Of a stretch of DNA of 32,000 bases, positions 6,847 through 21,646 are shown one piece after another (the stretch's first letter is position 1; each line of letters begins with the position of its first letter). A program made the position numbers and the translations under genes. Origin of the DNA: Candidatus Brocadia sp. Its GTDB lineage: Bacteria > Planctomycetota > Brocadiia > Brocadiales > Brocadiaceae. The notes beneath the pieces are model-generated. The model was not told the DNA's origin and made no database searches. It worked only from the letters and a program-made list of their open reading frames with translations. The stretch is from NCBI GenBank assembly GCA_021650915.1, contig CP091279.1, positions 2,190,001-2,222,000 on the forward strand, given 5' to 3'.

Positions 6847-7485
6847 ATGACGATGTCAGTGAGTATCATGAATGAGAAAGACGGCTCGGAGATGGTTTTT
6901 GTGCCGTCGGGTGAATTTATTATGGGTGAGGAAAGAAAGGTGGTTTCTATTGAGGCCTTTTATATTGATAAATTTCCCGTAACAAATTCTCAATATAGGA
7001 AATTTCTCGGAGAGGCAGGGTCGCAGGAACCTTTATTTTGGAACAATGAGCGATTCAATCAGCCAGCACAGCCAGTGGTGGGCATTAGCTGGAAAGATGC
7101 CGTTTCTTACGCAAAATGGGCAGGAAAACGGCTTCCCCGGGAGGTAGAATGGGAAAAGGCGGCGCGGGGAACTGATGGCAGAGAGTATCCGTGGGGAAAT
7201 ATACAACCGGATAGCATGAAAGCTGTTTACAATCAGGACCCCAATACGGGCGCCCCGGCGCCGGTTGGCAGTCGAAAAGAAGGGGTGAGCCCTTATGGTT
7301 GTTATGACATGGCAGGCAATGTTTGGGAATGGTGTGAAGATTGGTATGAAGAAGCAAAATTTCGCGTAGTCAGGGGAGGATCATGGCTCAACCATCATTA
7401 TATTCTGAGGAGCGCCTATCGGAGTTGCAGTTATCCCGAAGGAAAAGATAACAATGTCGGATTCCGTTGCGTCAAAGATGCGTAA
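6847..7485 (+). CDS. Formylglycine-generating-enzyme (SUMF1/FGE-sulfatase) domain protein
   Basis: Motifs seen: FYIDKFPVTNSQYRKFL, PVVGISWKDAVSYAKWAGKRLPREVEWEKAARG, GNVWEWCEDWY, RVVRGGSW and GFRCVKD. These are the classic FGE-sulfatase domain signature blocks. Confidence 0.85.
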   Translation: MTMSVSIMNEKDGSEMVFVPSGEFIMGEERKVVSIEAFYIDKFPVTNSQYRKFLGEAGSQEPLFWNNERFNQPAQPVVGISWKDAVSYAKWAGKRLPREVEWEKAARGTDGREYPWGNIQPDSMKAVYNQDPNTGAPAPVGSRKEGVSPYGCYDMAGNVWEWCEDWYEEAKFRVVRGGSWLNHHYILRSAYRSCSYPEGKDNNVGFRCVKDA

Positions 7486-7488
7486 TGA

Positions 7489-7932
7489 CTATCTTTTCAT
7501 GATCCCTAATGCTTTGAGTGATAAATGGATATCGTATTTCCCATCAAACTTGAATCCTTCGTCAAAGACCTTCTTGAGATCGTAACTATTTTTAAAGTCC
7601 TCTGGTGAATCAGTTTCGGTTTTCCCCATGAGACCGCTTTCTACCAGGTTAAAAACAATATTTCCAAAGTCTGCATCCTGTTTTATACCCCAGAGTTCGA
7701 ATACGGTTAAAGACATAAAACCGAATTGTTTTAACGCATATTTTCTGATACCCTCCATGAGTTGTTTGCCCGTTACATGGCGATCGGCATCCGTTGTTTT
7801 ATGCTGATTTTTGCCAAGCATGTTTGTGGTGTAGTCAAGGGCCTCAAATACAAATTGGTAAGCTTGCAAAGAATAGCGCGGGTCTTTCTTCATGATCTCT
7901 TTTATCTTGTGCCATGCCTTTGTCATATCCAT
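7489..7932 (-). CDS. Conserved hypothetical protein (resembles the PVC-restricted Minf_1886-type family; assignment from memory)
   Basis: This is a clean 147-aa ORF with globular composition. It is tightly packed 28 nt downstream of metG on the same strand. The YSLQAYQFVFEALDYT ... VTGKQLMEGIRKYALKQFG pattern is recalled from Planctomycetes/Verrucomicrobia hypothetical proteins. Confidence 0.6.
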   Translation of the reverse strand: MDMTKAWHKIKEIMKKDPRYSLQAYQFVFEALDYTTNMLGKNQHKTTDADRHVTGKQLMEGIRKYALKQFGFMSLTVFELWGIKQDADFGNIVFNLVESGLMGKTETDSPEDFKNSYDLKKVFDEGFKFDGKYDIHLSLKALGIMKR

Positions 7933-7960
7933 TACTCCAAAACTCCAAACATTAAAAAGG

Positions 7961-9511
7961 TTAAACGGATTCGATTCGTGGGAATAAAGGTTTCCCTCTT
8001 CGGGTGATGGTACCTTCCTGAAAATGCTCTTGAAATGCTAAACAAGGGGGCCGATCGTTTTCTAATATCCCAAGTTGTCGTTGAATTTCTGCAGCAGTTG
8101 TTGGCATGAACGGATAGATGAAAACAGAAATGTCTTTGATCGCTTGTGCCAGGGTGCCGATGACGGAGACAAGCTGCGGCCTTGACTCAGCGGTTTTCGC
8201 CAGCAGCCAGGGTTTCTTGTCTTCTATGAATTTATTCGCTTTGCCAATAAATTCCCAAATAATTTCCAGCGCTCTGCTAAACTGGAGATCTTCCATTTCA
8301 TGATCCATGGTATCACGGGCAACTCGTGATGCCATCATGAGTTCATCATCCGCACGGGGAACTTCAGGGATGATTCCCTGAAAATATTTTTCGATCATGG
8401 TTAAGGTGCGTTGCAAGAGATTGCCAAGATCGTTACCAAGATCAGAATTTATCCTCTGAATGAGAGCGCTGTACGAGAAATTCCCATCTGACCCAAAAGG
8501 AACCTCTCTCAGTAAAAAATACCGGTAAGCATCCGTCCCGTAAGACCGGATAATACTGTGCGGATCTATCGCGTTTCCCAGAGATTTCGATATCTTCTGC
8601 CCCTCAATTGTCCACCAGCCATGCGCAAAGATTTTTAACGGCAAATCTATTTTTAACGACATGAGTATTGCCGGCCAGATGACTCCGTGAAACCACAGGA
8701 TTTCTTTCCCGATGATATGAACGTTTGCAGGCCAGTACTTGTGAAATGTTTGCGGGTCGTCATCATACCCTAATGCAGTAATATAGTTCAGCAGGGCGTC
8801 AATCCAGACGTATATCGTATGCGTTGGATCCGAAGGAACGGGAATACCCCATTCTACGGCAGAGCGACTGATGCTGACATCTTCTATCTGAAATTTCATC
8901 CTCTGCAGTAATTCGTTTCTTCTCGACTCTGGCTGGACAAAAGAAGGGTGCTTATCATAATACTCAAGGAGATTTTTCTGATATTTCGACAACCGGAAAA
9001 AATAATTTTTTTCTTTTACTTTTTCAACCGCCCGGTTGCATTCAGGGCATTTTTTTTCTTTCAGCTGCGATTCGATCCAGAAACTCTCGCAGGGGATACA
9101 GTACCATCCTTCATATTCTCCCTCGTAGATATCGCCGTTTTCGTGGATTTGTTGAAAGATTTTTTTAACGCGACGGCAATGCCGTTCCTCAGTTGTCCGT
9201 ATGAAATCATCATGTGAAATATTGAGGTCGTTCCACAAGGTTTTGAATTTTTCTACCACGTCATTTACAAATTCCAGAGGAGATTTATTACCGGTTTGCG
9301 CCGCCTTTTGGATTTTTTGTCCATGCTCGTCCGTTCCTGTCAGGAACAACACATTAGAATTCCTGGCTCTTTTATATCGGGCCAGTACGTCAGCAGCGAT
9401 GGTCGTGTAAGAATGCCCGATATGCGGTATGTCATTAACATAATAGATCGGCGTGGTGAGGTAAAAGGTATTTTTACTCAAGACCACAATCCTTTTCGCA
9501 GAGATGATCAC
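7961..9511 (-). CDS. metG: Methionine--tRNA ligase, short form without the C-terminal tRNA-binding domain
   Basis: Seen: the HIGH motif (TTPIYYVNDIPHIGHSYT), the KMSKS motif (KISKSLGN), and zinc knuckles (CIPCESF / CPECNRAV). 9511 is a GTG that overlaps ricT by 38 nt. Comparison with other MetRS N-termini suggests a start at GTG 9487 or TTG 9481, so the start is uncertain. Confidence 0.9.
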   Translation of the reverse strand: MIISAKRIVVLSKNTFYLTTPIYYVNDIPHIGHSYTTIAADVLARYKRARNSNVLFLTGTDEHGQKIQKAAQTGNKSPLEFVNDVVEKFKTLWNDLNISHDDFIRTTEERHCRRVKKIFQQIHENGDIYEGEYEGWYCIPCESFWIESQLKEKKCPECNRAVEKVKEKNYFFRLSKYQKNLLEYYDKHPSFVQPESRRNELLQRMKFQIEDVSISRSAVEWGIPVPSDPTHTIYVWIDALLNYITALGYDDDPQTFHKYWPANVHIIGKEILWFHGVIWPAILMSLKIDLPLKIFAHGWWTIEGQKISKSLGNAIDPHSIIRSYGTDAYRYFLLREVPFGSDGNFSYSALIQRINSDLGNDLGNLLQRTLTMIEKYFQGIIPEVPRADDELMMASRVARDTMDHEMEDLQFSRALEIIWEFIGKANKFIEDKKPWLLAKTAESRPQLVSVIGTLAQAIKDISVFIYPFMPTTAAEIQRQLGILENDRPPCLAFQEHFQEGTITRRGKPLFPRIESV

Positions 9512-10915: not shown

Positions 10916-11164
10916 TTATGAAATCCCATCCTTAGCGTCGTTCTGCTGACCAGCTAATTCCTTTGATTTCCACTTGCTTCTTAAATAACGTAAGCCAACC
11001 AGTGCACTGCCACCGGCTGCAAAAAGGGCATAACTAATTGGCTCAGGCACAGGTTTCGGTGGTTTATTTTTCCTTCCGTTAGCATCTGCAGAGTTGACAA
11101 CGATCATTGTGGACAACACAATGGCAGATAAACAACCTCCAAATGTTAACAATCTTTTTCTCAT
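10916..11164 (-). CDS. Mini PEP-CTERM protein (82 aa), copy 1
   Basis: The ATG at 11164 is preceded by AAAGGAGGAATGGAAT. The sequence is MRKRLLTFGGCLSAIVLSTMIVVNSADA (signal peptide) - NGRKNKPPKP - VPEP - ISYALFAAGGSALVGL (TM) - RYLRSKWKSK (basic cluster). This is the canonical PEP-CTERM sorting signal. The track start at 11215 is an upstream TTG. Confidence 0.8.
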   Translation of the reverse strand: MRKRLLTFGGCLSAIVLSTMIVVNSADANGRKNKPPKPVPEPISYALFAAGGSALVGLRYLRSKWKSKELAGQQNDAKDGIS

Positions 11165-11281
11165 ATTCCATTCCTCCTTTTTAGCGATTTTGTTAAATTT
11201 TCCATTACAACACAATTTTTGTCAGTTACCCGTTCCTTTTTCCCTCACCCTATAAACCGGCATTAGGGTAAGTACTTGACA

Positions 11282-11509
11282 TTATTCTGCTGACAAATCA
11301 CTTCCTTTTGATTTCCACCTGCTTCTTAAATAACGTAAACCAACTAACGCACTACCTCCGGCGGCAAAAAGGGCATAACTAATCGGCTCCGGCACAGGTT
11401 TCGGTGGTTTATTTTTCTTTCCGTTAGCATCTGCAGAATTGATAACAATCATCGTGGACAACACAAGAGCAGATAAACAACCTCCAAATGTTAACAATCT
11501 TTTTCTCAT
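11282..11509 (-). CDS. Mini PEP-CTERM protein (75 aa), copy 2
   Basis: It has the same architecture and is near-identical to copy 1 (MRKRLLTFGGCLSALVLSTMIVINSADANGKKNKPPKPVPEPISYALFAAGGSALVGLRYLRSRWKSK). The ATG at 11509 has the same GGAGGAA RBS. Confidence 0.8.
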   Translation of the reverse strand: MRKRLLTFGGCLSALVLSTMIVINSADANGKKNKPPKPVPEPISYALFAAGGSALVGLRYLRSRWKSKGSDLSAE

Positions 11510-11700
11510 ATTCCATTCCTCCTTTTTAACGATTTTGTTAAATTTTCCATTACAACACAATTTTTGTCAGTTACCCGTTCCTTTTTCCCTCACCCTATAA
11601 ACCTGCATTAAGACAAAGCCTGCTGCAAGATTGAGACAGGACAGAAGAAACCGATGCCTGTATTTGCGTATCAGATCCTTCTCTGGAAACAGCTATTAAA

Positions 11701-11876
11701 CAAAAAAAGCCTTACTGCCAACGGATACAACTTTTTTCGGCAGTAAGGCTATCTTTTTCTAGCTCAACTTCCTATTCGCTGGAAAAGATCCTTTCCTTTG
11801 CGTCCCCCGATCACTCGGGGTTTGCCTTTATCGTGTGCTTCTATCTTTCAGAGCTCAGCATGAACTTTTTTTGAGA
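11701..11876 (-). ncRNA. Candidate small RNA / leader: copy 1 of a 3-copy structured motif
   Basis: Box B (11786-11833) contains the hairpin CCCCGA-GUGA-UCGGGG on the minus strand. Box A is the 5' arm of a 12-bp terminator hairpin (11739-11750 pairs with 11708-11719) followed by a U run. A promoter lies upstream (next feature). The 5' end is inferred from the promoter only. Confidence 0.35.
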
Positions 11877-11882
11877 TATTGC

Positions 11883-11912
11883 AGTATATGTTATCACAGA
11901 ATTCATTGTCAA
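11883..11912 (-). promoter_or_regulatory. Sigma70-type promoter facing the motif copy 1
   Basis: The minus strand reads TTGACA (complement of 11907-11912), an 18-nt spacer, then TATACT (complement of 11883-11888). It starts 43 nt after the folC stop. Confidence 0.5.
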
Positions 11913-11954
11913 GAAAAAAATAGCAAATTTATATTTCTTTTTAAAAGGCAATCT

Positions 11955-13325
11955 TCATGAAATATACAAAGCTTGTCTGGCTTCTCCCGCCACATAAGAG
12001 GAACCGGTAATACAGATCATGTCTTCATGGGAAGCCATTTGTTTTGCCATGATTACGGCATCTTGGACGTTATTTACTATCTCTGGCTGTTTACCGCTGA
12101 TACGCTCTATCCTCTGATATAAATCTCCTGGGGCGGCAGCGCGGGGATTTTTGCTTCTGGTTACAATAATCGAGTCCGCTTCCATGACGATTTCCTTCAG
12201 GATAGTGTCCATATCCTTGTCCTGCGAGAACCCCAGCACGATGATTAACTTCCTGAAGGTGAAATTTTCTATCAGCGCCTTTTTCAGGAATCGCATGGAA
12301 TCGGCGGTATGCGCAAAATCCAGAATAATACAGGGGTTTTCTGCAATAACTTCGATCCTCGCCGGACAATGGAGCGCGGCAAGGGCTTTCCGAATGGTGT
12401 CATCATTTACAGCAATGATGCCCCGCTCCCTGAGAATTTCTAATGCACCAAAAACCAAAGCACAGTTTCTTGCCTGATGAATGCCAGCAAGGGGCAGGTA
12501 AATATTGTCATAGGTATATCGCCAGGTCTTTATCCGGCACAATATCCCCCGTATGCCATCCTTCACAAGGTGTTTTACCTCTTCAATCCAAATATCCCTG
12601 CCGAGAAGATACAGGGAGGCATTCTTCTCCCTGCAGGTTTTTTCCACGACGGAAAGGGCTTCTGCCCCTTCTATACCGGATACAAGCGGAACACCTTGTT
12701 TGATGATACCGGCTTTTTCATAGGCAATGCTCGAAAGGGTGTTACCCAGGATAGAGGTATGATCGAATCCGATATTGGTAATAATTGATGCCAGCGGCAC
12801 GACCACATTGGTTGAATCAAGGCGCCCGCCGAGCCCGACCTCCAAAACGGCCATTTCTGTTCGCTTCCTTTGAAAATACACCATGCTTAGCGCCGTAAGG
12901 ATTTCAAAAAAGGTGGGTGATGCGGACGGAGACGTTTCCTGTAAATACCGGATGTATGGCTGCAGTTCGTCCATGATACTGGCAAACTCGGTCTCAGCTA
13001 TTTTCTGACGATTTATCTGAATACGTTCTTTTAGATCAATGAGGTGGGGTGAGGTAAAAAGGCCGGTAACAAGACCGGCGTATTCCATAATGGTGGCCAT
13101 CATAATAGCCGTAGAGCCCTTCCCTTTCGTGCCGGTAATATGAACACAGGAAAGGTTTTTATGGGGATTTCCCATATGAGCAAGCAATTTTTCCATCCTG
13201 TCTAAACTGAAAGTGGATGCATTATACTGGTAGCTAATCAGCTTCTCATAATCGATTGCTTTATAAAGAAATGCCATCGCCTCCTGGTAGGAGGAAAATG
13301 CTGCTTTGTCTTGTTGATTATTCAT
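11955..13325 (-). CDS. folC: Bifunctional folylpolyglutamate synthase / dihydrofolate synthase (Mur-ligase family)
   Basis: Seen: the P-loop VHITGTKGKGSTAIMMA, followed by LFTSPHLIDLKERIQIN and VLEVGLGGRLDSTNVV. At 456 aa it has the typical FolC length. Confidence 0.88.
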   Translation of the reverse strand: MNNQQDKAAFSSYQEAMAFLYKAIDYEKLISYQYNASTFSLDRMEKLLAHMGNPHKNLSCVHITGTKGKGSTAIMMATIMEYAGLVTGLFTSPHLIDLKERIQINRQKIAETEFASIMDELQPYIRYLQETSPSASPTFFEILTALSMVYFQRKRTEMAVLEVGLGGRLDSTNVVVPLASIITNIGFDHTSILGNTLSSIAYEKAGIIKQGVPLVSGIEGAEALSVVEKTCREKNASLYLLGRDIWIEEVKHLVKDGIRGILCRIKTWRYTYDNIYLPLAGIHQARNCALVFGALEILRERGIIAVNDDTIRKALAALHCPARIEVIAENPCIILDFAHTADSMRFLKKALIENFTFRKLIIVLGFSQDKDMDTILKEIVMEADSIIVTRSKNPRAAAPGDLYQRIERISGKQPEIVNNVQDAVIMAKQMASHEDMICITGSSYVAGEARQALYIS

Positions 13326-13821: not shown

Positions 13822-15673
13822 AGTGTCTGAACGAAAACGCACTTTTTGTAAAAGTGCGAGGTCGATTTTCTATTTACCAATAGATAATTTTAAGATTTGA
13901 GATTAGGGTTTTTGGCAAAAATACTGTTCTTTTACATATTTCCCTTGTTTTCCCCTTTATTTTAGCCTTGTCTGGGCGTACCTGCCTCCCGGCAGACTGT
14001 TTTTCTTCGTGTTTTTTGCTTGCTTAGGCGGCTTTTCGCAACTTTTCGCACTGCTTCCGTGCCTTCTCCTGCAGCACGTTTCCCAGCTTGTGCAAATTCG
14101 CAGCTAACACGCCCATTGCACAATATCTTTTAAAGGCATGCAGCCCTTTGTCCGGACACCTATCCAAGCCGTGATGCTCCAAACGATTGATATCCGATTC
14201 TACCGCCGAGTGCTTGTGCCTTAGCTTCTTAAATGTCTTACCCGATTCCTCTTCCTGTTCCGCCTTATTCTTCTTGCCCTTCTTGGGAAGGATTACCTCT
14301 GGTATATACAAACTCAGCAACTCTTTATTCTCTTTCTTGTAAAAACCTTTATCAAAACTTATACTCTTTATTGTGCCTTCTCCGTAACGGCTCAACAACC
14401 TATCTGCCAATGGAATTACCAACGATACATCCGCCTGTTTTTCTCCTACCACATGGTCCACGATGAAACCCCACTGATCGCTTGCTACCAGAATATTATG
14501 TCCCAACTCTACCCTTTTGTTTGACTTGCCTTTGTACAGCCACTCCGTATGCGGCTCAAACAACGAATGAACCTTTTCTGCCGCCGGTATTACCTCATCC
14601 CGGATCACCCTTCTCTCCACCAGGTCTATCTGTTTATTCAACATCCCGTGAAAATACTCCAGTGTCCCTATTTTCCCTGCATGCTTGTCTACCTGGTTCG
14701 TCGTTAGCACCTTTTCGTAGATGGCTAACAGACTCGCTCCTATCTTTTCACTCAAACCCCTCGATAATTCCAAGTAACTCCTCACATGCTCTTCCTTGTT
14801 TTTCCCCCCCGCTGCTTGACGCCTTTGCGCTTATCCTCATCAGCTTTTTTAACTCTCTCCTCCAATATTTGCTCTTGCGCCATCCTTTCCCCGCCAGGAT
14901 GCCTTCCTCTATTGCATCCTCTATCATGTCCAGACTCTTGCGTCCCGCATCCCACAATAAATTCATATCGGTCGGAAAGTGTACATTCGTCTCTAACACA
15001 TACGTATCCACCTTAATACACAGTCCTTCGTCCTTTTTTTTAACCAACTGATGCCCCGATGATATCACCACTTCATTTATCTGCCTGAGGGTCTCCTCAT
15101 CCAACAATCTTATATTGTCCTTGATGCTCTGCATCGAAAAAACCTTCGCCTCTCCAAATGCCGTCTCAACCCCCATTATCTGCCTGATAAGTTTGTGATG
15201 GTTGGCAAAATCCTCCAACCTGTCATAATCGGCATCTAACCCTAATCTTACCACCGACAACACCAAAATATGCCATAAATCCATCCCATATCTTCCCGTC
15301 TTTTTCTTCCCCTTCGTTACCTTCGCCTCTAATATCCGGAATACCTCCTCGTTCAACTCCGGTGTAACATAGATATGTTGCAACGCCCTCAGTATCGGTG
15401 GTAGCTCATCTCGACTCTTTATTGGCAGTTTTACCCCTGAAATGGGTATGATGCCAAGCTTCAATTGCTGCTCAAATCTCTTTCTCATCTTCTATCGAAT
15501 GTCCTTTGGCTAGTGGGTTAATGAACCGAATATTTGGACTCTTTATACCCAGAATCCCTTCATTTTCGCCATATTTTACCCTTTTACCCGAAAAAATTCA
15601 ATGACTTTCATGAACATTTTTCACCAGCTTCTCCTTACTTTACAGGGCTCTGGGGGGTTTCCGTTCAAACACT
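13822..15673 (-). mobile_element. 1852-bp IS (IS5/IS1182-like DDE element) nested inside the IS110 transposase gene
   Basis: The terminal inverted repeats are AGTGTCTGAACGAAAACGC (13822-) and the reverse complement of the right end, AGTGTTTGAACGGAAACCC (-15673). The flanking 4-bp direct repeat is AGAT (13818-13821 and 15674-15677). The family assignment rests on a DUF772-like N-terminal region and a DDE-type C-terminal region, and is uncertain. Confidence 0.8.
14024..15488 (-). pseudogene. DDE transposase of the nested IS, split into two overlapping ORFs by a frameshift at a G7A5 run
   Basis: ORFs 14748..15488 and 14024..14785 are in frames +1 apart. Removing one G from the run (complement of 14804-14810) would read ...AKASSSGGKNKEEHVRSYLELSRGL... 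continuously. The C-terminal part contains ...SFDKGFY...HSAVESDINRLEHHGLDRC.... Confidence 0.75.
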
Positions 15674-15677
15674 AGAT

Positions 15678-16634
15678 AAGAACGATAGTCGGATATTTGG
15701 GAAGAAGCTCCCCAATGATCTTGGCTTAATATTAAAGGAATTAAAGCCGTTTCAGAAAGAGATAGAAGGGATCGTGGTAGAGTCGACGTACAACTGGTAT
15801 TGGCTGGTGGACGGATTACAGGCGGCGAAATACAAGGTACACCTGGCAAATCCTGCGGAAATGCAGCAGTATAGTGGAATGCAGTACACGGACGACACAT
15901 GGGATTCCTATTGGTTGGCGCACATGCTCCGATTAGGTATACTGCCGGAAGGCTATATCTATCCGAAAGAGATAAGGCCGGTACGGGATTTATTGAGAAA
16001 GCGAACCATGTTGGTACGGCACCGGACGGCGCACCTATTAAGCCTGCAAAATATGGTGAATCGCAATACCGGAAGAAAGGTGAACGTCAACGATGCGAAG
16101 AGACTGAGCGAAGAAAAGATAAGCGAGCAGTTAACGGACAAACACCACAAAATGGCCGTGCAGAGCGACAAGGCAGTCATAGACTTTTTCCATGAACAGA
16201 TAGACCGGATAGAAAAGGCCGTACTGAAAGAGGTAAAATTACGATATCCGTATGAAGAACTGCTCACCGTGCCGGGGATAGGCAAGATATTAGGGATAAC
16301 GATCATGCTTGAGACCGGAGATATCAACCGATTTCCCACGGTATCAGATTATTCTTCATACTGCCGGTGTGTATCGTCCCAAAAGATATCAAACGGGAAG
16401 AAGAAAGGAGAGGGGAATAAGAAGAACGGGAATAAGTATTTGGCATGGGCATATGTGGAAGCGGCAAATTTTATGCGGAGGTATAGTGAACCTGCCAGGA
16501 GTTGGCATCAACGCAAGGCAGCGAAGACGAACAAGATCGTGGCGATTAAGGCATTGAGTAACAAGGTAGCCAGGGCGTGCTACTTTATCATAAAAGACCA
16601 AACGCCATTTGATCCGAAGAAATTATTTCAATAG
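15678..16634 (+). pseudogene. IS110-family transposase, 3' fragment (318 codons)
   Basis: This is the in-frame part of track ORF 15534..16634, beginning at KNDSRIFGKKLPNDLGLILKELKPF. The 48 upstream codons are read-through of the nested IS end. Confidence 0.8.
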
Positions 16635-17404: not shown

Positions 17405-17433
17405 TTGACAAAAGCCTTCTAATGGGTGACAAT
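17405..17433 (+). promoter_or_regulatory. Sigma70-like promoter, or the outward -35 of the IS110 right end
   Basis: TTGACA (17405-17410), a 17-nt spacer, then GACAAT (17428-17433). A 10-bp AT-rich hairpin (17363-17385) lies just upstream. Confidence 0.35.
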
Positions 17434-17462
17434 CCTCCACTCCAATCCTCCACAATCCTCCA
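17431..17462 (+). repeat. Three tandem AATCCTCCA units followed by a CCCC/GGGG hairpin and T5
   Basis: AATCCTCCA occurs at 17431, 17444 and 17454. This is followed by AATCCCC-ACATTA-GGGG-TTTTT (17462-17483). Confidence 0.6.
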
Positions 17463-17524
17463 ATCCCCACATTAGGGGTTTTTCAACTGAGTCATGTATA
17501 GGTGAGACGCTGTCCCGGCACTCT

Positions 17525-17740
17525 TCACTCGAGGATCTCTAGTTCAGCAATCTCGCCTTGTGGTGTCCGCCTCAGCACTCGTACGGATTGGTCAGGCCGG
17601 AGCACACCCGGGTCAACCAGAATTCCGGAACGACGTATCGTTGCACCTTCAGCAAGCATGACATGTTCGACTCCATTTGCAGTTTGCAACGCGAGCTGCA
17701 ATGGCCAGCTTTCCATTACTCGAAGAATCTTGCCTTTCAT
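17525..17740 (-). CDS. Small hypothetical protein (71 aa), probable beta-rich fold, downstream partner of the S1 protease
   Basis: The sequence is MKGKILRVMESWPLQLALQTANGVEHVMLAEGATIRRSGILVDPGVLRPDQSVRVLRRTPQGEIAELEILE. It has an alternating hydrophobic pattern, a GGAG 10 nt upstream of the ATG, and the same GC-rich composition as the protease gene. The overlapping plus-strand ORFs look like shadows. Confidence 0.5.
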   Translation of the reverse strand: MKGKILRVMESWPLQLALQTANGVEHVMLAEGATIRRSGILVDPGVLRPDQSVRVLRRTPQGEIAELEILE

Positions 17741-17764
17741 AACACAGCATCTCCAATAGAATAA

Positions 17765-17789
17765 GCGGGCAGCGGAAGATGCTGCCCGC
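17765..17789 (-). terminator. 9-bp GC-rich hairpin between the protease and the 71-aa ORF
   Basis: GCGGGCAGC (17765-17773) pairs with GCTGCCCGC (17781-17789) around a 7-nt loop. On the minus strand it is followed by UUAUUCUAUU. It could be a partial terminator or an mRNA processing/stability element. Confidence 0.45.
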
Positions 17790-17812
17790 CGCTCATAGCC
17801 GTGACAGGCAAA

Positions 17813-18817
17813 TCAACTATTTCGCCAAGCCATCATGTTGTTGAAAACCGCCGCAACAATGCGAGTCGAACTATTTGGACAACCGCCATAGGCGTGGATA
17901 CCCACCGCATGACGCTGACCATTAAGGTAACGCCACGTTGGACTACCGCTTTGTCCGCCGTACGTGTCGAGCATATAGTAGAGTTTGCGAGCGGTCATGT
18001 TGGTTATCCTGCCAGCATTGAACCACTGTGTACCGGGTGGTTTGTCACCAGGGTACCCAGAGTTGTTCGCGAGAAGGTTTAGTAGCGAGGCATCCGTCAG
18101 TGCTGCGAAGCCGAACCAGCCGACCTGATTCCCGAGCGAAGCACTGGACAAAATGATGCATCCATAATCGTAGTTCGGGTCGGCATTATTCGTCCAACCA
18201 GTGACGCTACGGAAAGACGTTCCGATCATCGATCCATACGGCCGCGATGCTCCTCGCATGCCTGGAATGACCTCGATCTGACGTGCCCAACCACCGTTGG
18301 CGCTAGAATAGACGCAGTGTCCGGCGGTCATCACTGCTTTAGGGCCAATGAACCAACCTGTGCACCCACCACGCGCGCCGTTTGGAAACGTGATTATTAG
18401 TTTGCAGATCCACCGCCATGGGACCACGGTAGTGCTTGTTACCTCGACACGGTCGTCTCGACCACACACACTCTCAAGTGGAGATCCTTCCGGCCTGCAC
18501 TCACACAGGTCAACCAATTCGTCGGTAAGAATCTCCACTGGCATTCCTTCACCGAGCGCCCGTTGCGGATCAAAGCCTGGCAAGCTTTCAAGTTCCCCGC
18601 CCCGTGGCTCTCCGTCAAAACTCTCAGCGACTTGATCAACGGTCACTGCCGCTTCCCCCCCCGCCATGCCTTCGAGGCGTCCCTCGCTACTGACTGGGGC
18701 ATGCAGAGAACCTGTAGACTCGCCTGAACTGCCGCCACCGCCACATCCACCGGGCTGTGAGTCACCGACATTCCCGGGTCTTTCTGTTCCGGAACTACTC
18801 TCATGGTGTTGAGACAT
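17813..18817 (-). CDS. Trypsin-like S1 serine protease (V8/Glu-specific-endopeptidase-like, COG3591 type) with a Gly/Ser/Glu-rich N-terminal extension and no recognisable signal peptide
   Basis: The catalytic contexts are MTAGHCV (His), YDYGCIIL (Asp) and DTYGGQSGSPTW (Ser). The strong RBS AAAGGAGGTTATC precedes the ATG. The N-terminal ~130 aa are low-complexity and acidic (SQPGGCGGGGSSGESTG...). Confidence 0.85.
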   Translation of the reverse strand: MSQHHESSSGTERPGNVGDSQPGGCGGGGSSGESTGSLHAPVSSEGRLEGMAGGEAAVTVDQVAESFDGEPRGGELESLPGFDPQRALGEGMPVEILTDELVDLCECRPEGSPLESVCGRDDRVEVTSTTVVPWRWICKLIITFPNGARGGCTGWFIGPKAVMTAGHCVYSSANGGWARQIEVIPGMRGASRPYGSMIGTSFRSVTGWTNNADPNYDYGCIILSSASLGNQVGWFGFAALTDASLLNLLANNSGYPGDKPPGTQWFNAGRITNMTARKLYYMLDTYGGQSGSPTWRYLNGQRHAVGIHAYGGCPNSSTRIVAAVFNNMMAWRNS

Positions 18818-19015
18818 GATAACCTCCTTTAACTCGTAATTGGGACCCCCATTGAACCGTGTCGTGCTGGCGGGTCCGATGCCAAGCCGTTCGACTTACT
18901 GTTTAGTGTGTGTATGGGTTTCGCTCTTTCCTTTAACACATCCTTTCTTGTCTGGTGCGGGCAATCAATGTGGCCTAACAAAAAAGTCTCACAACAAAGG
19001 TGTCCCCTAAACATC

Positions 19016-19145
19016 TTCGGCAGTAAGGCTGTCTTTCTATTTTCCTGAAATCCCCCTTAGTCCCCCTTTTATAAAGGGGGGATTTAGGAGGATTAAAGAC
19101 CCCATTACTTTGCGTCCCCTAATCACTCAGGGTTTGCCTTTGTCG
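19016..19145 (-). repeat. Copy 2 of the 3-copy structured motif (no terminator 3' arm; expanded spacer containing a C/G palindrome)
   Basis: Box A is at 19016-19040. Box B is at 19098-19145 with the hairpin CCCUGA-GUGA-UUAGGG (one G.U). The spacer holds CCCCCTTT-TAT-AAAGGGGG (19062-19080). The element starts directly after the stop codon of the 94-aa ORF. Confidence 0.5.
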
Positions 19146-19430
19146 TTATGTTTTTTGTTGTATTGCCTTTATTCCTTCATACCTGCTCCGATTTATTCGA
19201 TAGTAGATATGTGCATCTTTTCCTTTGTGCTCAAGCAGAATGCCTTGCGCTACCAGTTCCGAGAGAGATTCTTTGACCTCACTTGCCTTATGCCTGACCT
19301 TTTGCTTCAACAACCACCATTCCGCGACACCCTCCAGCGTGTCCTCTGCATCGGGATATTCGGACAGATAGGCTAGTATCTCCTGCATAATGTATGGCTT
19401 TCCCGTCGCACACTTTTCATGCTTGTCCAT
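19146..19430 (-). CDS. Small hypothetical protein (94 aa) with a C-terminal winged-helix-like segment
   Basis: The sequence is MDKHEKCATGKPYIMQEILAYLSEYPDAEDTLEGVAEWWLLKQKVRHKASEVKESLSELVAQGILLEHKGKDAHIYYRIN.... It has globular composition and sits about 75 nt downstream of a sigma54-type promoter. There is no strong SD. Confidence 0.55.
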   Translation of the reverse strand: MDKHEKCATGKPYIMQEILAYLSEYPDAEDTLEGVAEWWLLKQKVRHKASEVKESLSELVAQGILLEHKGKDAHIYYRINRSRYEGIKAIQQKT

Positions 19431-19515
19431 AATTTATTTGAAGTTGAGATGCTTCCTTACGTTCGCAATGACAAGCCGTCCTTTCGTTTTCTGTAATTAC
19501 CAACGATCTAATGTT

Positions 19516-19533
19516 AAAGCAACCGTCGTGCCC
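19516..19533 (-). promoter_or_regulatory. Sigma54 (-24/-12) promoter
   Basis: The minus strand reads GGGCACGACGGTTGCTTT. That gives GGCAC at -24 and TTGCT at -12 with exact GG-N10-GC spacing, against the consensus TGGCACG-N4-TTGCW. Confidence 0.55.
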
Positions 19534-19869
19534 TCATGGACAAAATTCATTGCATAAAAAGTCGAACTGCTTTCAAATGCCGATCAATGAAGGGATTGGA
19601 GATGTTTTTTGTAAATTTTGAGATCAGACCGAATCTTTGATTTTTCACGTAATTCAAGTATGTACTATGTTCTTCTTGTCTTGGCTATTTCGACGAAAGA
19701 TCGGTAAGGTACTTTCAGTAAACAAGTTAACGGCAGGATAAATTTATCATAGGCAATGCAGGTAAATGTCATGGTTAATAGTATTATCCTGTAAAAATCT
19801 TTTCTTATTAGCAAGTTTCCTAACAACCCCTCTCTGTCCCTCTTTAACAAAAGGGGAATTGACTGATGA

Positions 19870-21315
19870 TTAGTTCTTTTCTTTTGGGTGAGACGGGGTA
19901 ATGCTATGTGTTTTGGTCCTATAGTTTTCCGGGTTGATGTGGTGTTTACGGATCAGTTGCCAGAATGCCCGACGATCCTTCCTGGCGGCCTGTGCCGCTT
20001 TGGTAATGTTGCCGTGATGGGCAAGCAAGAGGCATTGAATATACGCCGTTTCAAATTGTGCGATGATCCTCTCTTTTGCTTCCTGAAAAGACTCCGCCTG
20101 CACACCGGTTTCCGGAGACGGTAGGGCAAGATCTTCTTTCCCTATAATCCTCTGATCAGAGAGGACAACTGCCCGCTCGATTACATGCTCCAGTTCTCTC
20201 ACATTACCATGCCAGTCAAGGAGCGGGAGGAGTTGCAGTGCATCAGAGGAGAATTCGACGGCCTGTTTGTTGTACTCGTCTGCATACTGAGACAGGAAAT
20301 GTCTGGCGAGAAGGGGAATGTCGTTGCGTCGTTCCCGCAGGGGGGGCAGGACGAGGTGGATGACGTTTAATCGATAGTAAAGATCCTGGCGGAATCTCTC
20401 CGCCCTTACCGCCTCTTTCAATTCGGCATTCGATGCGGCAATGACCCGCACGTCTGCCTTGCATACCTTCGGAGAACCGAGCGGCCGGTATTCTTTCTCC
20501 TGGAGAAAGCGCAGCAATTTGACCTGCGCAGGGAGGGAAAGACAGTCTATTTCATCCAAAAAAAGTGTACCACCCGCAGCCTCCTGGATTAACCCCTGTT
20601 GGGATGAAGTGGCGCTGGTAAATGCGCCCGGCTTGTGGCCGAAGAGTTCGTTTTCGAGCAGTTCCGTGGGAATGGCGCCGCAGTTGACCGGGATGAACGG
20701 CTTGTCCGCCCGCGGGCTGAGATAATGGATCGCCCGGGCGCATACCTCCTTCCCGGTGCCGGTTTCTCCACTGATCAGGACCGTTGCGTCACTCTTCGCC
20801 ACACGGGGGATTTTCTGTATCTCTGCCAGAAAGGCCGGATCTTTCCCGATGATGTGTTGCAGTCCAACCTTTTCCAAAAGGGTTTGGTGGAGTATTTCTG
20901 TCGGCGTATTTTGCACCAGTAATCGCCAGATACGGGGAATGATATCGGCTGGTCTGAGCGGTGGCGTAATGAAATCGGTTACACCAGCCTTAAGCAAATC
21001 AAGGATCTCCTCATGCGGACATTCGTCTATGACCAGAATGACCGGTGTTTTCATAAATTTGGTTCGTAAAGACTGCAAGAGTGCACTGGCATGATGAAAT
21101 AAGGTGTGGGGTGAAATGAGAAGTATTATATCTGGATAGAAACGTGGGGCGATTCCAGCAAGGTCACTGGTAAGGAGATCGGATGCCTCTATCTTTACGG
21201 ATTCATAATGCAACGGGGTGTTTAGGCCGCTGGATGATTCGAGAACCCCTTGCAACATCTGACCAAGACTGGATGTGGGGTTAATATCAAGAAGCAATAG
21301 CTTGCCCTGTTTCAT
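19870..21315 (-). CDS. Sigma54-dependent transcriptional activator (NtrC/AtoC-type bEBP) with a degenerate receiver domain
   Basis: The AAA+ sigma54-interaction domain shows GETGTGKE, ENELFGHKPGAFTSA (a GAFTGA variant), LFLDEID and RQDLYYRL. The Fis-type HTH is HGNITKAAQAARKDRRAFWQLIRKH. The N-terminal receiver-like domain lacks the conserved Asp, Thr and Lys positions. Confidence 0.9.
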   Translation of the reverse strand: MKQGKLLLLDINPTSSLGQMLQGVLESSSGLNTPLHYESVKIEASDLLTSDLAGIAPRFYPDIILLISPHTLFHHASALLQSLRTKFMKTPVILVIDECPHEEILDLLKAGVTDFITPPLRPADIIPRIWRLLVQNTPTEILHQTLLEKVGLQHIIGKDPAFLAEIQKIPRVAKSDATVLISGETGTGKEVCARAIHYLSPRADKPFIPVNCGAIPTELLENELFGHKPGAFTSATSSQQGLIQEAAGGTLFLDEIDCLSLPAQVKLLRFLQEKEYRPLGSPKVCKADVRVIAASNAELKEAVRAERFRQDLYYRLNVIHLVLPPLRERRNDIPLLARHFLSQYADEYNKQAVEFSSDALQLLPLLDWHGNVRELEHVIERAVVLSDQRIIGKEDLALPSPETGVQAESFQEAKERIIAQFETAYIQCLLLAHHGNITKAAQAARKDRRAFWQLIRKHHINPENYRTKTHSITPSHPKEKN

Positions 21316-21338: not shown

Positions 21339-21492
21339 AAAAAAAGCCTTACTGCAAAAATGTTTTGGGAAAACACCTTCGGCAGTAAGGCTATCTTTTC
21401 TTGTGGCAAGGCTATCTTATGAACTCACATCCCTGTACGTCTCAAGACCCTTTCCTTTGCGTCCCCTGATCACTCAGGGTTTGCCCTTATCG
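21339..21492 (-). repeat. Copy 3 of the 3-copy structured motif, ending in an intrinsic terminator ~24 nt upstream of the bEBP start codon
   Basis: Box B is at 21445-21492 with the hairpin CCCUGA-GUGA-UCAGGG. Box A forms an 11-bp hairpin (21382-21392 pairs with 21345-21355) followed by a U run (complement of 21339-21344). The sequence TTTATTTATATAAAAAAGGGGGCTTT-ATG follows. Confidence 0.5.
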
Positions 21493-21646
21493 AAATGTAT
21501 CTGTTAGATATGTGAGCAAAACAAACGCCAATGCCATGGCATGAGAAAAATTGTTTGCAAAATTATTTGATATGCCGTGAGTTTTAATCACTTATAAACA
21601 AAAAAAGAAAGGTTTGAATAACAACAGATGAATGCAAAAGATATTC

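Follow-up and report, generated by a model that had tools for sequence, protein, structure and literature searches.

The subject of this analysis is a pair of genes within a 32,000-nucleotide stretch of the Candidatus Brocadia sp. contig CP091279.1 (positions 2,190,001 to 2,222,000, hereafter the window), the first encoding a serine protease without a signal peptide and the second, directly downstream on the same strand, a protein of 71 amino acids (aa). The two genes form a self-contained unit that is inherited and transferred together, and the smaller of them is a real gene under purifying selection. Judged from its sequence, the product of the first gene is an S1B glutamyl endopeptidase that is made in the cytoplasm, probably as a zymogen, with specificity for Glu predicted. 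The role favoured for the 71-aa partner is that of cognate inhibitor of the protease, a tentative reading that draws on analogy with known operons. In Ca. Brocadia the pair appears to have been captured as cargo of a regulatory cassette that carries a predicted riboswitch.

The gene pair and its two products

In a scan of one genome per species the protease had at least 309 relatives, and 77 loci were extracted (loci carry the prefix L below). The relatives are spread over Cyanobacteria, Alpha-, Beta- and Gammaproteobacteria, Planctomycetota, Verrucomicrobiota, Acidobacteriota, Chloroflexota, Bacteroidota, Mycobacterium and three archaeal lineages. At approximately 40 of the 77 loci the protease gene is immediately followed, on its own strand, by an ORF that matches the profile of the 71-aa family, nearly always where protease identity is at least 58%, so that the pairing noticed in an initial annotation of this DNA is found to hold across genomes. 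The paired loci span many phyla and include one archaeon; there are also archaeal relatives without this partner. All-against-all clustering of neighbouring genes revealed the 71-aa gene as the only broadly conserved neighbour, with the flanking genes varying between loci, and the pairwise distances of protease and partner were correlated over 47 loci (Mantel r 0.65, with 0 of 2000 permutations as high). The window protease is 77-82% identical to proteins of Limisphaerales and Nitrospira and 53-63% identical to archaeal ones. It is the patchy distribution over phyla, reaching one archaeon, that argues for horizontal spread. Origins in a phage or a plasmid were considered and rejected: a single relative was found among the 2.9 million viral contigs of IMG/VR, matches to Staphylococcus and Listeria phage records were weak, and homologues on plasmids were only distant (<=46% identity).

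The protease matches the Pfam Trypsin family (E 2.4e-8) and its closest solved structure is the glutamyl endopeptidase of Bacillus intermedius (1p3c, E 4e-25), with V8 protease (1qy6) matching at E 2e-11. Residues His167, Asp217 and Ser290 align with the catalytic triad of 1p3c and are conserved in 55 homologues, which bears out the earlier recognition of an S1 protease with an intact triad. The invariant His308 aligns with the His that stands beside the S1 pocket of 1p3c, in the motif G-V-H-N-A-G, and is the one feature from which cleavage after Glu is predicted. In the protein collection 1717 homologues were found at E <= 1e-5, the top 120 of them at 57-89% identity, and there are 63 invariant columns over 55 homologues, including E115, H167, H308 and C313. 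The protease has in common with the glutamyl endopeptidase I/V8 family (S1B; 1p3c and SspA of Staphylococcus aureus) the chymotrypsin fold, the aligned triad, the G-x-H-x-x-G His by the S1 pocket and the register of the mature N-terminus with a Glu before it. It differs in being without a signal peptide, in the motifs of its pro-region and in the extra invariant cysteines C118 and C313, identity being ~30% as estimated from the 1p3c alignment, and its own family is a tight clade that extends across phyla and into the archaea.

The absence of a signal peptide, as originally described, is upheld: the first ~50 residues contain no hydrophobic stretch, and none of about 80 homologues inspected carries a signal peptide. 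The N-terminal extension noted at the same time is also present, but is 115 aa long and not ~130 aa. It contains islands of sequence that are conserved across phyla (HESVSSE-like, PVSSEG, AESFxG, GELESLxGFDPxRALxEG and LTDEL) and ends in the invariant Glu115, after which comes [ST]-V-C-G-x-D-D-R. Ser116 aligns with residue 1 of mature 1p3c and Glu115 occupies position -1, so that cleavage after Glu115 would leave an N-terminus in the canonical register. In the V8 family the free N-terminus contributes to Glu recognition and the Glu-binding pocket, for which reason the full-length protease should be a zymogen, and the Glu at position -1 makes self-activation at this point plausible. In the AlphaFold2 (AF2) model the catalytic domain has a confidence score (pLDDT) that is mostly >85 and residues 61-70 of the pro-region dock (pLDDT 92), with the linker 114-131 flexible (pLDDT <50) and residues 1-34 disordered. 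A strong ribosome-binding site (AAGGAGG) lies 5 nt ahead of the ATG.

Four cysteines, C118, C138, C168 and C313, are invariant or nearly so among the protease homologues; one conserved Cys is the third residue of the mature enzyme as predicted, and another lies in the S1 pocket wall, within the sequence GGCPN. Such conservation may point to a disulfide or a redox switch, an odd feature for a cytoplasmic enzyme. The density of the motif V-S-[SGN] in the pro-region is 11 times that in the catalytic domain, and the form x-V-S-S-x (HESVSSE or HxxVSSE) was seen at residues ~5-10 and 41-45 (window 18683-18805).

The 71-aa protein has 25 close homologues at 60-77% identity, with the residues E-S-W-P-L-Q invariant, and the ratio of non-synonymous to synonymous substitution rates (dN/dS) of its gene is 0.21-0.28, so that the open reading frame (ORF) singled out initially is both conserved and selected. 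The sequence GGAG lies 10 nt ahead of its ATG. The AF2 model (pLDDT 94.9) is all-beta, a small barrel of six strands in which residues 10-14 (ESWPL) form the turn between strands 1 and 2, and Glu10 is the sole invariant acidic residue in this exposed, Pro-stiffened loop. Comparison of the model with the PDB by Foldseek gave weak, generic OB-fold matches (E 0.02-0.1). An exhaustive search with the family profile retrieved 223 cluster representatives, among them forms with a lipoprotein signal and secreted proteins of 2-9 tandem copies, the tandem-repeat relatives being assigned by Pfam to DUF5666 (PF18914) and CusF_Ec (PF11604); the relatives P0235, P0163 and P0157 match PF18914 at 1.8e-37, 2e-10 and 5e-8 respectively. 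The 71-aa protein itself has no Pfam match even at E <= 1. It is a divergent DUF5666/CusF-like single domain, alike in the six-stranded barrel predicted and in the repeats that its profile retrieves, and is not a member of PF18914: it falls below threshold, has one domain and an E-S-W-P loop and is linked to a protease, whereas generic DUF5666 proteins are secreted and have multiple repeats. The E-x-x-P core of the loop is kept in distant partners and missing from the generic DUF5666 repeats. No match for the protein was found in NCBIfam, PADLOC or PHROGs, nor to Emfourin (PF20242). A likeness of the family to UFM1 was rejected, the matches to PDB sequences being sub-threshold (E 0.05) and the model all-beta with no helix. 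A C-terminal Glu/Asp of the partner acting as a product-like inhibitor tail was also rejected, as the residue is not conserved in distant members. The literature on DUF5666, on COG3591/V8-like proteases and on leaderless glutamyl endopeptidases was searched, and no mention of this pair came up.

The location of the partner varies between lineages. In many filamentous cyanobacteria and one gammaproteobacterium it has a clear lipobox signal peptide, the protease there being leaderless, and it is leaderless in Microcoleus, Brocadia, Nitrospira, Limisphaerales and one archaeon, among others. The V-S-[SGN] motif recurs in the linkers of 10 of ~17 lipoprotein partners (as NQSVSS or PVSS); linkers with V-S-S were seen in L017, L020, L021, L024, L026, L028, L029, L031 and L033.

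The partner as a putative inhibitor

The argument for an inhibitor begins with the islands in which the pair is found. In Nitrospira CP054184.1 (L096, 9001-13775), where the protease is 82% identical to that of the window, three cassettes follow in series on one strand: the S1B protease with its partner, an S1-like protease (409 aa) with a 100-aa ORF, and an M4 protease with emfourin. The emfourin matches PF20242 at E 4.5e-14 and the M4 protease is protealysin-like. A second island contains the S1B protease with its partner, a 322-aa gene with a 119-aa gene, and an S8 peptidase with a 79-aa gene. Islands of leaderless proteases (S1B, S1-like, M4 or S8), each then followed by a small ORF, were seen in L096 as above, in L098 (9001-13843) and in L031 (5995-11432). 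Protealysin is an intracellular protease whose active site is bound 1:1 by emfourin, the product of a downstream gene of the same operon; deletion of emfourin is harmful, and its protective role has been demonstrated (PMC9505478). It is the M4/emfourin operon beside the pair in Nitrospira that suggests, by analogy, an inhibitor, and that lends indirect support to the inhibitor or immunity factor listed among the options in the initial annotation.

The protealysin-emfourin system (M4 with I104, Serratia proteamaculans) is likewise bicistronic, with a leaderless zymogen followed by a non-secreted protein of ~70-100 aa, and in one Nitrospira island it lies side by side with the S1B pair. The two differ in class, metallo as against serine, and the 71-aa protein is not a PF20242 protein and has another predicted fold; the likeness is confined to gene organisation, with inhibition demonstrated for emfourin. 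A small beta-barrel inhibitor is also encoded directly downstream of its protease in the staphopain-staphostatin (sspB-sspC, scpA-scpB) and AprA-AprI/Inh systems, and AprI is periplasmic while its protease has no N-terminal signal, a situation that may be compared with the lipoprotein partners of the S1B protease. The targets of staphostatin and AprI are however cysteine or metallo-proteases, and there is no sequence or confident structural similarity between these inhibitors and the 71-aa protein. The window pair may be regarded as a variant of the known arrangement of a leaderless protease with a small downstream inhibitor, the inhibitor role being putative.

In the mechanism proposed the 115-residue pro-region would hold the enzyme inactive, and cleavage after the invariant Glu115, probably by the enzyme itself, would free the N-terminus. 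The partner would bind the mature enzyme 1:1 and block it, the likely contact being its invariant exposed Glu10-Ser-Trp-Pro loop in the S1 site, in parallel with the action of emfourin on the leaderless M4 protealysin encoded just upstream of it. The intercistronic hairpin may set the ratio of protease to partner. The purpose of the pair could be regulated intracellular proteolysis, or it could be a toxin/immunity-like pair. At L008 there are two copies of the pair (7000-8222 and 11645-12430) amid transposase genes, in both of which the partner is intact and the protease fragmented. Intact partners beside fragmented proteases fit a protective role, with the caveat that the fragmentation may reflect either decay or errors of long-read assembly.

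A number of observations weigh against this account. No known family of inhibitors shows detectable similarity to the partner, whose Foldseek matches in the PDB are weak (E >= 0.02). Lipoprotein partners stand beside a leaderless protease in cyanobacteria and one gammaproteobacterium, and export would not be expected of an inhibitor that acts in the cytoplasm. With a pro-region already present in the zymogen, there is no strict need for a second, separate inhibitor, and the cysteines C118/C138/C168/C313 would suit an oxidising, extracytoplasmic site. The riboswitch control put forward below is itself conditional, the aptamer lying just under the gathering score and the terminator being degraded, and we know of no established ligand for this c-di-GMP-I-GGC variant. 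Finally, distant homologues of the protease are paired with a CarboxypepD_reg protein or an S8 subtilase and not with this partner.

Downstream of the distant proteases, in place of the DUF5666-like gene, there is a gene for a small CarboxypepD_reg (PF13620) protein (L063, L064, L066-L069, L071, L073, L075, L076, L078, L084 and L086). In Bacteroidota this protein is a lipoprotein, in Mycobacterium and in an archaeon it has no leader, and it constitutes a second, unrelated small beta partner. The leaderless S8 subtilase was found near distant proteases at a dozen or so loci and also on a megaplasmid of B. cereus, where it lies upstream of the protease homologue and the partner is lacking. In genomes of the Roseobacter group distant proteases are accompanied by a BTAD/TPR regulator.

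The lipoprotein partners fit an immunity protein sited where an incoming or exported protease acts, and they fit an adaptor role too. As an effector the protease would attack neighbouring cells after leaving the producer through lysis or some non-classical, unlinked route, with the partner conferring immunity in whichever compartment the protease reaches, as a periplasmic lipoprotein in many cyanobacteria and in the cytoplasm in Brocadia. A leaderless enzyme followed by a small protein, exported or not, is the pattern of secreted effectors with their immunity proteins, and the same interpretation has been proposed for protealysin/emfourin (PMC9505478). The patchy cross-phylum spread with insertion sequence (IS) elements nearby, the conserved protease cysteines and the intact partners of L008 are all in keeping with it. 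It is nevertheless considered unlikely, as the loci compared revealed neither a gene for a secretion system, nor a delivery domain (such as PAAR, Rhs or MIX), nor any other conserved neighbour, archaea, mycobacteria and cyanobacteria have no common delivery machinery, and a dN/dS of 0.08 denotes very high sequence conservation, unlike that of fast-evolving polymorphic toxins.

A partner that serves as substrate, as activator or co-factor, or as membrane-anchoring adaptor was given equally little credence. It might, for example, be cleaved at the invariant Glu10 or Glu68, which match the predicted specificity of the protease, or recruit the protease through the V-S-S motif, which is enriched in the pro-region and recurs in the lipoprotein linkers as described above. 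The inhibitory pro-region of the zymogen itself points the same way, as does the nature of other DUF5666 domains, which occur as repeat modules outside the cytoplasm and are not known to act as inhibitors. Cleavage at Glu10 would however strip strand 1 from a very compact barrel, which would be odd for a signalling substrate, and among the leaderless proteases of these islands that have a small gene downstream, the only characterised case is that of an enzyme with its inhibitor.

The initial annotation also pointed to bacterial conflict and defence systems, and here no link to a described system could be made, the proteins having no PADLOC or NCBIfam defence match. In PADLOC-DB v2 the search gave only a 24-residue, sub-threshold match to Avs1b round the catalytic His of the protease (E 0.02) and none for the 71-aa or 94-aa proteins. 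An anti-phage or conflict module, in which a protease effector of the abortive-infection type is restrained by the small protein, would account for the sporadic distribution over lineages, for a TIR-domain protein two genes away in L009, for Csm6/Cas02710-like and methylase genes in the Nitrospira island and for regulation by a riboswitch of the cyclic-dinucleotide type in Brocadia. It is quite improbable given the failure of the defence models to match, the lack of any sensor (NTPase, STAND, CARF or cyclase) conserved beside the pair and the lone relative among the viral contigs; the riboswitch, moreover, belongs to a Brocadia cassette that serves other genes too.

If the partner does inhibit the protease it would represent a new family of inhibitors for V8-type glutamyl endopeptidases, for which to our knowledge no dedicated bacterial protein inhibitor has been described, and would provide the first function for DUF5666-like barrels. 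It is also clear that a type of protease known only as secreted includes a large, highly conserved branch of intracellular enzymes that is exchanged across domains and often resides in islands with other leaderless proteases, which raises the question of a role in regulated proteolysis or in self/non-self discrimination. A more far-reaching proposal, itself rather doubtful, is that the ESWP barrel is a new inhibitor family for Glu-specific S1B proteases which, with the CarboxypepD_reg and emfourin pairings, would define an unrecognised mobile class of leaderless protease zymogen plus cognate small blocker common to bacteria and archaea, wired in Ca. Brocadia to a two-tier riboswitch/sigma54 cascade through which a second messenger, as ligand of the GGC variant, would switch on intracellular proteolysis.

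A Brocadia cassette with a predicted riboswitch

A sigma54 site, a gene of 94 aa and a bacterial enhancer-binding protein (bEBP) were originally reported upstream on the same (minus) strand, and all of these are present. The element adjacent to the protease is a predicted c-di-GMP-I-GGC aptamer that had been overlooked. The aptamer matches RF03167 over the full model (1-80) with E values of 1e-10 to 2e-12, and a 50-nt insertion in a loop leaves it 3.4 bits below the gathering score of 59. Orthologous copies score 58.9-60.7 bits, around the gathering score, which is passed in L090, L092 and L093; a range of 59.4-61.3 bits was also obtained for orthologous copies, and the L090 aptamer at the position orthologous to 21377-21494 scores 61.3 bits. 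The aptamer is 198 nt upstream of the protease ATG, which is about the distance to the cargo gene in other cassettes. Alignment of cassette copies confined their homology to the 94-aa gene and the ~170 nt after it, ending near 18970.

Behind the L093 aptamer stands a strong terminator (-29.1 kcal/mol, z -7.8) whose 5' arm consists of the aptamer's own 3' strands, an overlap that implies an ON switch. The 3' arm is mutated in the window, where folding gives -12.1 kcal/mol (z +0.4), no better than shuffled sequences. With this terminator decayed, expression probably depends mainly on the sigma54 step, and the protease pair would probably be read through from the sigma54 promoter. The window element is like other GEMM-I GGC variants (RF03167) in its full-length aptamer and in the terminator overlapping the aptamer 3' strands in orthologous copies, and differs from them in that terminator's decay and in coming after a small ORF, not at the 5' end of a transcript.

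The site GGGCACGACGGTTGCT, which has one mismatch, is the only sigma54-like site in the window with <=1 mismatch and is conserved in the L093 copy; it lies ~90 nt upstream of the 94-aa gene and 700 nt from the protease. A site that had been read by eye at ~18872-18886, 55 nt upstream of the protease, was rejected, having 4 mismatches and no conservation elsewhere. No sigma54 site upstream of the protease is conserved in 81 loci, 5 of which have one with <=2 mismatches within 260 nt, and the bEBP is not among the conserved neighbours of the pair in the loci compared. The cassette is restricted to Brocadia and in further Brocadia genomes precedes other genes. Control by sigma54, earlier considered a possible property of the module, is for these reasons not one. 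Neither the aptamer nor a sigma54 site was found to accompany the pair in other taxa.

Homologues of the 94-aa gene were found only in Ca. Brocadia, in several copies. The protein has a weak match to a PHROG annotated as transcriptional regulator (E 0.06) and no Pfam match, and is possibly a winged helix-turn-helix protein. The bEBP is 75% identical to one that precedes an 86-aa homologue of the 94-aa gene in another Brocadia genome. Copies of the cassette (the 94-aa gene with the riboswitch) were seen in L090 (7001-14261), L093 (7001-14285) and L092 (1977-3577). The cargo that follows the 94-aa gene in other Brocadia is either four small ORFs with a giant S8-OmpA protease or a radical-SAM gene; S8 cargo peptidases are 1800-2000 aa in length with OmpA or peptidoglycan-binding domains, and proteases recur as cargo of this riboswitch. 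The likely order in the window, with the pair as captured cargo, would be riboswitch, bEBP, sigma54 promoter, small ORF, riboswitch and cargo.

There are three RF03167 aptamers in the 32 kb of the window, and Brocadia appears to use this orphan c-di-GMP-I-GGC variant heavily. Brocadia offers a concrete regulon for the variant, one of proteases, and a natural system in which to seek its ligand. Downstream of the aptamer at 11735-11835 are two small paralogous genes (11282-11560 and 10916-11215), whose products both start MCCNGKFNKI. Residues 1-70 of the bEBP (window 21100-21315) were read by eye as a receiver-like domain with Ser at the position expected for the phospho-acceptor Asp (DIILLIS), and the L090 orthologue has the same substitution (DMIILIS); the bEBP may be an activator that is independent of phosphorylation.

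Layout and base composition of the locus

Features of the window around the protease gene pair, with positions counted from the first nucleotide of the window
Feature	Position	Strand	Basis
bEBP (sigma54 activator), 481 aa	19870-21315	-	Pfam Sigma54_activat E 1e-67, also NCBIfam
c-di-GMP-I-GGC aptamer in 5' leader of bEBP gene	21377-21494	-	57 bits, E 7e-12
sigma54 -24/-12 promoter-like site GGGCACGACGGTTGCT	19518-19533	-	<=1 mismatch
Small ORF, 94 aa (80 aa as annotated), BROFUL_01234 of Candidatus Brocadia fulgida	19146-19430	-	ORF list
c-di-GMP-I-GGC (GEMM-I variant) riboswitch aptamer	19015-19147	-	Rfam RF03167, 55.6 bits
Riboswitch expression-platform terminator, decayed copy	18972-19035	-	Folding energy and alignment of cassette copies
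Leader between Brocadia cassette and protease start	18818-18971	-	Alignment of cassette copies
Protease ORF, 334 aa	17813-18817	-	Pfam Trypsin
Protease pro-region, residues 1-115	18473-18817	-	Homologue alignments, with islands HESSS, PVSSEG, DQVAESFDG, GELESLxGFDPxRALxEG and ILTDEL
S1B catalytic domain, residues 116-334 and stop	17813-18472	-	Pfam, 1p3c alignment, model
Intercistronic GC-rich hairpin, weak U tail	17764-17790	-	Folding energy
71-aa partner ORF	17525-17740	-	ORF list, homologues
IS110-family transposase	15534-16634	+	Pfam
DDE (IS4/IS5-type) transposase, split into two ORFs	14024-15488	-	Pfam
Third c-di-GMP-I-GGC aptamer	11735-11835	-	62.1 bits, above gathering score

The GC-rich island that had been estimated by eye was confirmed by computation, the GC content of 17486-18830 being 0.552, the highest of 614 sliding windows, and the mean for the whole window 0.453 (sd 0.031, for windows of equal length). 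The excess resides in the first two codon positions: the protease has a GC1 of 0.58 and a GC2 of 0.555, with GC2 at ~0.35-0.40 in neighbouring genes, and its GC3 of 0.54 is at the level of its neighbours (bEBP 0.564, an acetyl-CoA synthetase-like gene 0.58, IS genes 0.54-0.56). The peak is therefore the product of a protein rich in Gly, Ala, Pro, Arg and Ser, and not of foreign codon usage or recent foreign origin; synonymous sites are saturated when the window gene is compared with its nearest homologues in other phyla. GC richness as a sign of foreign origin accordingly falls away. For the wider claim of horizontal acquisition the patchy cross-phylum distribution and the IS neighbours speak in favour, and the codon-level composition, which is not atypical, speaks against. 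The IS110 and IS4/IS5-type elements reported to adjoin the island were both found. A protein identical to the protease is encoded on LAQJ01000135.1 (assembly GCA_000987375.1).

An origin of the GC excess in amino-acid composition would also suit an ordinary secreted nutritional protease followed by an unrelated ORF, with the GC peak an accident, and the closest solved relatives are indeed secreted. This is hardly credible, however, for a family in which no homologue has a signal peptide and for a downstream ORF that is conserved, selected and co-inherited in ~40 genomes.

The GC-rich hairpin between the two genes is present as described, with a stem of 10 bp (8 of them GC pairs) in place of the 9 bp first given (-25.7 kcal/mol, z -1.7). 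Hairpins of 12-18 bp and of other sequence occupy the equivalent place in L006, L011, L016, L017, L018, L023/L040 and L024. An inverted repeat of 16 nt around 17458-19601 was considered as the ends of an element and rejected as a chance occurrence, there being twelve such pairs in 6.6 kb. The direct repeat ACAATCCTCCA[CA]TCC occurs twice, 23 nt apart, at 17429-17466, just 3' of the 71-aa gene and at the edge of the GC-rich segment. In L006 (10292-14906), on a contig of 3.57 Mb, ~30 tRNA genes lie 2 kb downstream of the pair and next to an HNH gene, a region that may be mobile or prophage-like.

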